Source: a virus (Duplodnaviria > Heunggongvirae > Uroviricota > Caudoviricetes). From it: 4,102 bases of DNA. Positions 1 to 3,000 of the stretch are shown here, in pieces. The stretch lies in IMG/VR virus record IMGVR_UViG_2703718820_000006. One strand, given 5' to 3'. A program made the position numbers. How positions within the stretch are numbered: the first letter of the stretch is position 1; each line of letters opens with the position of its first letter.

Positions 1-3000
1 GACATATCTGACGAACCTGTATTTCAAAATTAAAGAAGACCGGCGTAAGGCGGCGCGGGGAGAGTAGACGATGAATAAACAATACGAACTGGTTGTTAAA
101 GGGATAAATATTTACCCGGATAAGATTACTGGGTATACGTCACTGTTGTTGCCAAATGTGGTGATTGATCTTGATCGTGTTGAAGGTGCCCCGCTGGAGT
201 TTTACGAAGCTGAGGCGAAAAAGAAGGCGAAGCAGTTTTTCATGGATATTGCTGCCGGGTTATGTGAAGGGAACGAACCGTTGCCGGAAAAGCGCCTCTG
301 TTCAGAAGAGCGGTATACCATACAAATTAACAATGCATATAACACGATACAGTCAGAAAAAGATGATATCGAATCACGCATTGAAAAACTGGAGAACAGC
401 GTCGTTGAACTGAATAAAAAACTGTCGGTGCAGATCCCTTCCGAAGGTGAAAAAAAACGCCGTGATGAGCAGTTCGCGGCGTTTTACGATTATTGCCGGA
501 AAGTGATGAGCAGAAATCTCGCAGAGTGTTTCCGTATTCAAAAAAACAGAGAGCGCTCTGCAAATAGTGAGATTCTGGATAATTTTTTAAAGGGGACGCA
601 TCTCGCCAGTGATTGTTTCATTGCTCATTCTTTTGGTGGCTTTCATGAGGCCATCAAACATGATGTTGAGAGAAGTCCAGGTATCCTCTGTTCCATTCCC
701 GTAAGCATCGAAATAGACACAAATACGATAACCGGTGAACTCGTTACCGCCGGAGTCGGTATATTCCGTCATGAGGGGAACGATGCCAAAGGTTCCTTTA
801 CAAAAATCGGGCCGTTCTTTCTGAAGGTAGAGCGATAGTTTGTTAAGTACCCATCCGACAGCTCGCTCATTTTGGTTTATTTTCGTATCGCGAAACAAAA
901 ATTCGAAGCGGCCAGATGACGCATGGGTGCAACCAAATACCGGGGCGTATTCATCAACCTTTGGTGTTCCTGAAAACATGCAGTCCGTGCTCTCGAATGC
1001 AGATGAATTGCTGTTGATCCACTTAACAAAAGAAAAAAAGGTCTGAATCGCTTGTCTGTCTGAATATTCAACAAAATCCTCAAGGTGTGTCTCGATCAGT
1101 TCCGGGTGTTTACGAAAGTCATAATATTGACCGGGACGATATTTATGAGTGGTTGTTTTATCCCATGGTTGTGCTCTGCGTCCCTGTAAACGGAGGTCTG
1201 CCGCTGGATAGATAAGCATAAGTAATCTCCTGGTGGAATGTAATCCACGATCATCCGGGGAAATTAAGAACCCGCCAGTGCCCACCACTGGTGGGGTGAA
1301 GGCTTAACATATCCAGGGATTCGGAACCGATAAATCCTGATAAATATCCATGAACACCAAAATCAAATACGGCCTGTCGGCTGCCGTTCTGGCGCTGATT
1401 GCCGCAGGGGCGCCTGCGCCTGATATTCTCGACCAGTTTCTGGATGAAAAAGAAGGTAACTACACCACGGCATACCGTGATGGTGCGGGTATCTGGACCA
1501 TCTGCCGGGGTGCCATCATGGTGGATGGTAAGCCTGTGATTCCTGGCATGAAGCTGTCGAAGGAAAAATGCGACCGGGTTAACGCTATCGAACGGGATAA
1601 GGCGCTGGCATGGGTGGCGAAAAACATCAGAGTGCCACTGACCGAACCTCAGAAAGCGGGGATCGCGTCATTCTGCCCTTACAACATTGGCCCCGGAAAG
1701 TGTTTCAGCTCAACGTTTTACCGGAAACTGAACGCCGGAGACCGTAAAGGCGCATGTGCTGAAATTCGTCGCTGGATATATGACGGTGGTCAGGACTGCC
1801 GTATCCGCTCAAATAATTGCTACGGTCAGGTATCCCGTCGCGACCAGGAGAGTGCGCTGGCATGCTGGGGTATCGACAGGTAGCAGAATATTTTGCTGAA
1901 AAATGACGTTTGCTCACGCGGACGGATAACACGAAATCCTGCGAACTGGCAAAATGCAAGTGAATAAAGTCAGGAAGATTGTTTCACGCAGAGGCACCGT
2001 AATGGTGTCTTTGTCATTTCTGCGCTTCGCACAAGCGTAAATAAACCAAAGAACCTTTCAGGATGAGCCCTGGTGGATAACCGGCAGTGGTCTGGTTAAC
2101 CCTCTTTGGGCTGGTTATTCCTGTGCGCAGGGTTCATCACTAAAAGGAAATAACCGATGAATATGATAACCGTGCCGTTTCACGGCGATTCTCTTTATGT
2201 GGTTAACCATAACGGCGAACCATACGTTCCCAAACCTGTCGTTGCGGGGATGGGGCTGGCCTGGCAATCACAGTTGGCTAAGTTAAGACAGCGTTTTGCG
2301 TCAACTATAACGGAAATCGTTATGGTTGCTGAGGACGGGAAACGACGCAATATGGTGTCCCTGCCACTTCGAAAACTTGCAGGCTGGTTACAAACCATCA
2401 ATCCCAACAAAGTAAAACCCGGAATCCGCGACAAGGTTATCCAGTATCAGGAAGAGTGCGACGATGTTCTCTATGAATACTGGACGAAGGGTTTTGTCGT
2501 TAATCCTCGTCAAATGAGCGTGATGGAAGAACTCAACCAGGCATGCGCTGACATGAAACGGGATAAAAACATTGCCAGTCTGTTTGGTACAGGGTTAAAC
2601 GAATGGAAACTGGTTAAAGCCGCGCATGTATCAAAAATTCGCACGTTGATAAACGAAGCGAATCTGCTGATTGGTTTTGTCCTGGCTGATACAGGCAAAG
2701 GAAAAATCACAAAGACGGATTGATGGAGTGGCGTCTAATGATATCAGGCAAACTCATAATGCTGGCGAAGGGCCTTTGTGTAATCGTCGGGATTTCATTT
2801 TCACTAATGCTGGTTGTTCTTTTTCCTTCCATAGCCTGGATGGCGTTGAGTTCGGCAGGGCTGGTGGGGTGACAGTGACTGATGACGACAATTTATTTAA
2901 ACAGATGAGTACTGAATTTATTCGGGCAACGGCATTTGCCATTCGCATTGTGGCAATTGCGGTTCTAATCCGGGAAATCCGCTGGTGGTGAAATGAATAA

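Follow-up and report, generated by a model that had tools for sequence, protein, structure and literature searches.

The window analyzed here, a stretch of 4,102 nucleotides (nt) from the Caudoviricetes record IMGVR_UViG_2703718820_000006, contains the lysis region of a Shiga toxin (Stx)-type lambdoid prophage, within which a single gap of 130 bp (1220–1349) separates the ATG of a minus-strand open reading frame (ORF; ATG at 1219) from the ATG of the endolysin gene at 1350. This gap holds a stem-loop on the minus strand (1271–1295, hereafter hairpin 1), and the feature that is conserved among related loci (designated by L numbers) is, on comparative evidence, a nucleic-acid stem-loop under selection, in a register shifted relative to a perfect 15-bp palindrome, CCCACCACTGGTGGG, that had drawn attention to the region. 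The comparisons establish the covariation of the stem, its conservation, its fixed geometry relative to the sequence TATCAGGAT...TATGTT, its position at junctions, and its portability. The best single explanation, if still just short of probable, is that hairpin 1 is a 5′-proximal mRNA element in a portable cassette heading an accessory (“cargo”) gene.

Hairpin 1 pairs an arm at 1286–1295 with one at 1271–1280 across a loop at 1281–1285, and it contains a conserved core of 8 bp (1273–1280 paired with 1286–1293). RNA folding of either strand selects this 10-bp stem and 5-nt loop, leaving the 7-1-7 symmetry of the palindrome unused, with fold energies of −18.9 kcal/mol on the plus strand (one G·U pair) and −16.3 kcal/mol on the minus strand (one A×C mismatch). 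Across 28 distinct sequences, 95.5% of stem cells are standard pairs and double changes occur at five of the eight pairs, a pattern of base pairing kept up by selection, as a stabilizing 5′ stem-loop of an mRNA would show; none of 500 shuffles reached the observed covariation score or the number of double-changed cells, and sliding the 3′ arm by 1 to 3 columns lowers pairing to between 14 and 43%. Compensatory pairs include CGCCAGUG/CACUGGCG, CGUCAGCG/CGCUGACG, and CGCCCAUG/CAUGGGCG, as well as CGUCCAUG/CAUGGACG and CAUCCAUG/CAUGGAUG. A larger set of loci yields 38 distinct hairpins of the hairpin 1 class, with loops of 5, 6, or 7 nt, and unrelated hairpins of two other lineages stand at the same distance from TATGTT (CAGCCUG/CAGGCUG in L032 and CAUCAGA/UCUGAUG in L260). 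Because half-site sequence and spacing both change and whole dyads are replaced, a stem-loop is favored over a dimeric operator, and the element probably acts as an RNA hairpin rather than as a site for protein docking. Searches with the covariance models of Rfam 15 returned nothing at E ≤ 1 in the window and nothing relevant in two tail-context loci.

The cassette is found in several genomic contexts. A covariance model (R1) built exclusively from 30 tail-gene-context copies has one strong match in the window, a full-length one (model positions 1–82 of 82) at 1265–1345 on the minus strand, with 46.9 bits and E = 9.1e-9. Upstream of related endolysins, at least seven unrelated left flanks meet the conserved sequence within 1 to 2 nt of the hairpin base, and every left flank starts a minus-strand ORF unlike the others, complete with a Shine-Dalgarno sequence (SD), about 32 to 55 nt from the hairpin. 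Among these cargo ORFs are the one encoding the window's 210-aa protein and members of phrog_1853, 2572, 10490, and 18136; an ORF of phrog_2411 is preceded by a different hairpin. Where a full-length YdfR is present and minus-strand cargo is lacking (the L022/L041 group, EDL933, and Sakai Sp9), the 3′ arm of the hairpin alone remains and adjoins a CTGAAGACT direct repeat, and the endolysin alleles of the L007 group have an unrelated leader. The hairpin and its right-hand neighbor also occur between the tail genes H|M, M|L, and I|J, with no endolysin near, the cassette again lying 5′ of a small ORF directed against the late operon; on its far side, the late strand carries a strong intrinsic terminator (AGCCACCYYCGGGTGGCTTTTTTT). 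The cassette is present in Escherichia and also in species-representative genomes of Enterobacter, Citrobacter, and Atlantibacter; it was not found in E. coli K-12 Qin or in EDL933 933W. Its sub-parts are found in many combinations, indicating recombination within the cassette.

Two further observations concern the tail contexts. In L113, L200, L186, L342, L344, and other tail loci, a strong intrinsic terminator of the late strand (AGCCACCYSSGGGTGGCTTTTTTT) bounds the cassette directly before the next tail gene, and a small late-strand ORF, DUF1327-like or coiled-coil, is convergent to the cargo, which suggests that the two genes form a convergent unit there.

The cassette is about 80 to 125 nt long and, in the window, runs from 1345 to 1220 on the minus strand. 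Read along the cargo strand, it comprises TATCAGGAT, a variable inverted repeat of 22 to 24 nt, CNGGN-TATGTT, 6 nt, TCAGCC, and hairpin 1, followed after 10 to 25 nt by GAGGG-AUGGCUGAUUA-CCUC, UAAGGA, and the start codon of the variable ORF. The conserved box TATCAGGAT (1334–1342, minus strand) marks the upstream edge and forms the 5′ half of an inverted repeat, ATCAGG...CCTGG, that flanks the putative −35 region. A weak −35-like hexamer, TTTATC (1329–1334, minus), lies 17 nt 5′ of a conserved −10-like hexamer, TATGTT (1306–1311, minus; TAATGT in L101), the site totaling 8.0 bits, a score not above that of shuffles; the hairpin core follows 12 to 13 nt downstream, beyond a spacer (1296–1305, minus) with a conserved TTCA(G/C)CC motif. 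By our own position weight matrix (PWM), a hexamer-N15-18-TATGTT arrangement ranks first among sigma-70-like sites in 13 of 20 representatives. A “stem 0” consensus for the putative −35 region was excluded as evidence, as no single register aligned it. Sigma-54, sigma-S, sigma-E, lambda-operator, and NtrC-type geometries were compared by eye, and none fitted.

Downstream of hairpin 1, the leader of the window's cargo gene (1220–1270, minus) contains a diverged copy of GGAUGGCUGAUUAC (~1241–1258), an upstream out-of-frame ATG (1254→1252), and the SD AGGAG (1231→1227), which is paired with UUUCC(CC) in the predicted fold. The second leader element, diverged in the window (...CCGGAUGAUCGUGGAUUAC...), occupies the hairpin-to-SD interval in the form GAGGG-AUGGCUGAUUA-CCUC in L200, L204, L216, L238, L051, L058, and others, and its AUG opens a mini-ORF of 3 to 12 codons (e.g., MADYL and a stop) at certain loci and shares the reading frame of the cargo at others. 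The GGAUG motifs of this element resemble CsrA sites.

As we envisage it, the accessory gene would be transcribed from a weak sigma-70-type promoter inside the cassette (−10 TATGTT, 1311→1306), and the transcript, as predicted from this geometry, would start 7 to 9 nt past TATGTT (~1297–1299), leaving the stem-loop 2 to 4 nt from the 5′ end of the mRNA. A 5′-terminal stem-loop may shield the message from 5′-end-dependent decay or otherwise set expression; the second leader element (the GGAUGGCUGAUUACCUC motif) and then the SD would follow 3′ of it. Because the cassette is shared among loci, it could also supply homology for the swapping of accessory genes, as in the promoter-early stem-loop (PeSL) cassettes considered below. 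What we infer in this scheme is the promoter, where transcription starts, which strand acts, and how the mRNA is affected. With regard to strand, substitution patterns suggest a modest preference for the cargo strand: in the larger set, about 19 to 20 cells are G·U-only for the cargo strand versus 8 for the other, and one stem pair displays the series C-G → U·G → U-A. For the first 28 sequences, assignment by G·U versus A·C counts was indecisive (95.5% versus 93.3%).

Several observations weigh against this reading. The sigma-70 PWM scores amount to 5 to 9 bits and are equaled by 30 to 99% of shuffles; a standard promoter and terminator scan of both strands of 1220–1349 returned no promoter; and the conservation of TATGTT and ATCAGG is partly dictated by the search patterns used. 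The putative −35 and spacer region forms an inverted repeat of its own with a changing inner sequence (mean z of about −1.7 on both strands), and this stretch could be transcribed or bound. The variants from which the strand preference is drawn are phylogenetically non-independent, and the window's own copy is reversed, with its A×C on the cargo strand and its G·U on the late strand. Finally, tail-context homologues of the window's cargo (L160, L187, and L227) retain TATCAGGAT...TATGTT and have no hairpin; hence, the hairpin is not indispensable for this cargo gene.

The stem-loop could instead act in RNA of the late (plus) strand, whether in an S-to-R transcript or as the 3′ tail of an upstream small late ORF, where it might serve as a processing or stability barrier or belong to an antisense RNA over the leader and promoter of the accessory gene. 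This explanation, which we regard as unlikely but deserving of weight, draws on the greater stability of the window's copy in the plus strand and on the fact that its sole non-Watson-Crick pair is the G·U seen there, as well as on the sRNA-like (small RNA-like) succession of hairpin, second hairpin, and terminator (AGCCACCYYCGGGTGGCTTTTTTT) in the tail contexts and on the inverted repeat over the putative −35 region, which suggests a structured stretch. The excess of wobble-only cells on the cargo strand speaks against it, as do the failure to find a conserved late-strand promoter 5′ of the hairpin (where the sequence is cargo-specific), the lack of a U-tract past the hairpin on the plus strand, and the lack of an Rfam family on either strand. 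None of the prophage sRNAs considered as an identity for the element coincides with it: PasA/C/D lie upstream of the holin, AsxR and AgvB are located at the PR′ moron site, and HnrS (EcOnc10-12) maps downstream of Rz in Sakai Sp9.

It is rather improbable that the hairpin matters chiefly as DNA, that is, as a recombination junction or hotspot (through a cruciform, a hairpin, or shared homology) with little role in expression. The abrupt joining of unrelated left flanks at the hairpin base and the mosaic combinations of sub-parts accord with such a role; deletions between short CTGAAGACT repeats, moreover, remove the 5′ arm together with the cargo, and the PeSL cassettes of T4-type phages (PMC2839356, PMC4122927) offer a precedent. 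Homology-driven exchange, however, needs no covariation, and yet pairing survives both double substitutions and full replacement of the stem. A recombinational role is compatible with a 5′-proximal mRNA element and does not exclude it.

That hairpin 1 is a leader terminator or attenuator on the cargo strand, limiting read-through into the accessory gene, is doubtful. A U-run directly follows the stem in L003 (GCGUUUUUCC), L038 (GCGUUUUAUC), and L102 (GUGUUUUACC), and the G+C-rich stem of 8 to 10 bp, at −16 to −19 kcal/mol, is of the kind found in rho-independent terminators. Past the extended stem, the window's minus strand has one interrupted tract (UUCUUAAUUU), which is not conserved, and its plus strand has none. 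Most variants lack a U-tract (GUAAAC, GCAUUAAU, GCACUC, GAACUC), and the terminator scan does not call the window's hairpin.

The earlier note had suggested that the palindrome may be an operator controlling the minus-strand gene, which it named Y, and/or reinitiation into the endolysin, and had judged the sequence better suited to a dimeric protein than to a hairpin. A cis-regulatory role for the minus-strand gene is reasonable; the proposed control of the endolysin finds no support, as the endolysin occurs without the element (in 933W directly after the holin, and in the L007 group behind a different leader) and the element occurs in tail contexts that lack an endolysin. Nor is the contrast between protein binding and hairpin formation supported, given that the same bases form the 10-bp stem with its 5-nt loop that is conserved in relatives. 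We consider an operator bound by a dimeric DNA-binding protein and governing the divergent genes quite improbable. The dyad does lie between divergent genes, just 3′ of a promoter-like box, a position typical of repressors; its loop, GGUGGG(A), is fairly conserved; and symmetric covariation of half-sites could, in principle, imitate base-pair covariation. On the other side, the spacer shifts by 1 to 2 bp (loops of 5 to 7 nt), the five varying positions of the eight always change with their partner, whole dyads are replaced, and no DNA-binding regulator accompanies the cassette, whose cargo ORFs are mutually unrelated. Dyad-symmetric repressor operators such as the 17-bp lambda OL/OR sites share with the element a dyad beside a promoter-like sequence between divergent genes, and the minus strand and lambda OL1 presumably have CCGCCAGTGGT in common. 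The element differs from them in the spacing of its CACC/GGTG core, in half-sites and spacing that are not conserved among relatives, and in its location in the late region, far from the immunity region.

The palindrome, CCCACCA-C-TGGTGGG at 1281–1295, does have the exact 7-nt arms and single central C ascribed to it, but its perfect symmetry, and with it the 7-1-7 register on which an operator would depend, is restricted to the lineage of the window. Most relatives read ...CACTGGCGGG, which makes the 7-1-7 arrangement imperfect but leaves a perfect stem of 8 to 10 bp in a register shifted by 5 nt, and nearly all have (C)GCCAGTG-CCCAC-CACTGGC(G)GG, with a perfect 8-bp stem. Because L088, a close relative that shares the right flank of the window, carries G on the cargo strand where the window carries A, a single transition at 1292 creates the perfect palindrome, and this transition weakens the ancestral stem. 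The alignment therefore marks the perfect symmetry as incidental, a by-product of one substitution, and mutagenesis would be better aimed at the shifted stem, with compensatory changes, than at the palindrome. Taken alone, the palindrome is within chance and statistically unremarkable, as shuffling a window of this length and composition gives a perfect 7-1-7 palindrome in 21% of cases (mean of 0.24 per 4.1 kb in mononucleotide shuffles); that the site as a whole is a functionless chance palindrome is, however, scarcely credible when the overlapping stem is conserved with covariation through dozens of variants in several genera. The 12-mer CTGGTGGGGTGA, which comprises the right arm of the palindrome and its flank (1288–1299), recurs at 2861–2872, at the end of a small ORF (2720–2872); chance alone would give a 12-mer repeat in about half of all 4.1-kb stretches.

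Recurrence of the half-site TGGTGG had been read as a hint of a shared regulator. The two copies cited, at 1231–1236 and 2071–2076, are present, the first abutting the SD of the minus-strand gene and the second being one of three CTGGTKR-type repeats 5′ of the antirepressor gene. The hexamer is, however, over-represented and strand-biased (12 copies in the window versus 2.5 expected, 9 of them on the plus strand and most in coding sequence), with a density of 2.9 per kb versus 1.35 per kb in 2.8 Mb of related prophage DNA; it overlaps Chi, and the corresponding arm in relatives is mostly TGGCGG. Its recurrence is compositional or Chi-related, the two cited copies are not special, and none of this speaks for a common regulator. 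Exact Chi octamers (GCTGGTGG) lie at 2860–2867, 2981–2988, and 3813–3820, all on the plus strand and each containing TGGTGG; the palindrome arm, ACTGGTGG, matches seven of the eight positions of GCTGGTGG and is not an exact match. Three Chi octamers in 4.1 kb compare with about 0.13 expected by chance, and CTGGTGG occurs six times on the plus strand and once on the minus.

Among known systems, the PeSL cassettes of T4-type phages (Arbiol et al. 2010, PMC2839356; Comeau et al. 2014, PMC4122927) come closest. Each kind of cassette pairs a promoter-type box with a stem-loop in a short conserved composite, has small and variable ORFs of unknown function at its flanks, serves as the meeting point of unrelated sequences, and occupies several genome positions, consistent with recombinational shuffling; here, the composite sits at the recombination junctions S|R, H|M, M|L, and I|J (R1 cross-context E = 9e-9). 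PeSLs, however, consist of strong sigma-70 promoters with proven terminator stem-loops, whereas here the promoter match is weak (PWM scores of 5 to 9 bits), no general U-tract is seen, and the stem-loop lies 3′ of the promoter-like box. PeSLs are features of virulent myoviruses, where they occupy hyperplastic regions and point the same way as their neighbors, whereas the present cassette belongs to temperate lambdoid phages and carries its cargo against the late operon; the two share no sequence similarity.

The cassette can also be compared with morons, of which lambda bor and lom and HK97 gene 15 are examples. Like the morons of lambdoid phages (Juhala et al. 2000, as cited in PMC4104026), the window has an extra gene between operon genes (holin|endolysin), with a putative promoter and a terminator-like hairpin of its own. 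The insert separates genes that are adjacent in a relative (4 nt apart in 933W versus 1.28 kb here), the terminator is identified by consensus match, and the promoter is a weak match. Classical morons have been described singly, each with its own signals, whereas here one leader cassette serves many ORFs at several sites and a late-strand partner ORF (DUF1327/YdfR-like or coiled-coil) is usually convergent to the cargo.

The 5′-terminal stabilizing stem-loops of E. coli mRNAs, of the ompA type, provide a third comparison. The cassette's hairpin is likewise stable (−13 to −19 kcal/mol), its predicted place is a few nucleotides at most from the 5′ end of the mRNA, and its structure is conserved above its sequence, but the loop and the preceding UUCAGCC of the cassette are more conserved than a purely structural role requires.

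With respect to the flanking genes, the window begins with the 3′ end of a class II (S21-type) holin gene (1–66, plus strand), recognized by sequence reading and annotation. In 933W, 4 nt lie between the holin and lysozyme genes, so the 1.28 kb that separates them here represents inserted material. It includes a DUF1327/YdfR-family ORF (71–838, plus), residues 1–88 of which match the domain and residues 1–160 phrog_2091; the NCBI Prokaryotic Genome Annotation Pipeline (PGAP) treats its equivalent as a truncated pseudogene, and its 3′ part, which runs antisense into the cargo gene, is probably not native. Relative to phage 86 and L001, this ORF has a 24-nt in-frame deletion within the domain, and, having lost its native 3′ end, it continues for about 250 nt antisense to the minus-strand gene until a stop.

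The cargo gene itself (587–1219, minus; ATG 1219→1217, SD as above) encodes a 210-aa protein. As full-length homologues with 53 to 65% identity share its start, the ORF from 1219 to 587 is, by this comparison, a real gene; homologues occur in Salmonella and in tail-gene morons. The protein has no match in Pfam, PHROG, PADLOC, or NCBIfam, and PGAP leaves the space from the truncated DUF1327 ORF to the lysozyme without a gene call in L001, the closest complete genome. A hairpin with a T-run that resembles an intrinsic terminator by consensus match lies 26 nt past the cargo stop codon (561→546, minus, after the stop at 587).

On the other side of the gap, the endolysin gene (1350–1883, plus) encodes a Phage_lysozyme protein with a hydrophobic N terminus of the signal-arrest-release (SAR) type, and it is followed by genes for an antirepressor (P22_AR_N), a D12-class adenine methyltransferase, and Rz. 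Two small hydrophobic ORFs and the D12-class N6-adenine DNA methyltransferase (2720–2991, 2993–3760) are insertions in the antirepressor–Rz interval; the methyltransferase is missing from the closest relatives, L001 and L002. Upstream of the antirepressor gene, 2058–2112 contains three CTGGTKRWWAHCC-type direct repeats (CTGGTGGATAACC, TCTGGTTAACC, and GCTGGTTATTCC), and inverted repeats occur 5′ of the gene at 2008–2052 and 2025–2130. In EDL933 (L339; NZ_CP008957.1, 1862399, plus strand), a published Cappable-seq start lies about 103 nt 5′ of the prophage lysozyme (PMC10469882), inside the 3′ end of a full-length ydfR, and was seen in five of eight growth conditions, which hints at Q-independent transcription toward the endolysin in lysogens.

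A broader interpretation, which we advance as a possibility that falls well short of being probable, is that these elements constitute an undescribed, self-contained mobile regulatory cassette of temperate enterobacterial phages, one that would capture, express, and shuffle unrelated small genes. Its parts would be the promoter-like box, the 5′ stem-loop, the invariant GGAUGGCUGAU leader element (sometimes a mini-ORF of 5 to 6 codons, MADYL), and an SD; expression would run opposite to the late operon, and shuffling would take place between late-gene junctions and between phages. Such a cassette would be a lambdoid counterpart of the T4 PeSLs with a structured leader RNA, possibly under the control of a factor. 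A search of the literature on the flanking gene family and on cassettes of this kind in lambdoid phages found no description. If the interpretation is correct, the signature TATCAGGAT...TATGTT-N6-TCAGCC-hairpin would mark accessory genes opposed to late operons in lambda-like prophages of E. coli, including Shiga toxin phages, and of related enterobacteria. Such genes often escape annotation pipelines, the conserved 210-aa protein being an example, and the cassette would provide a handle for cataloguing candidate lysogen-expressed functions, such as exclusion or defense. It would also aid the study of how these genes are expressed and exchanged, and would extend the PeSL concept to temperate phages.

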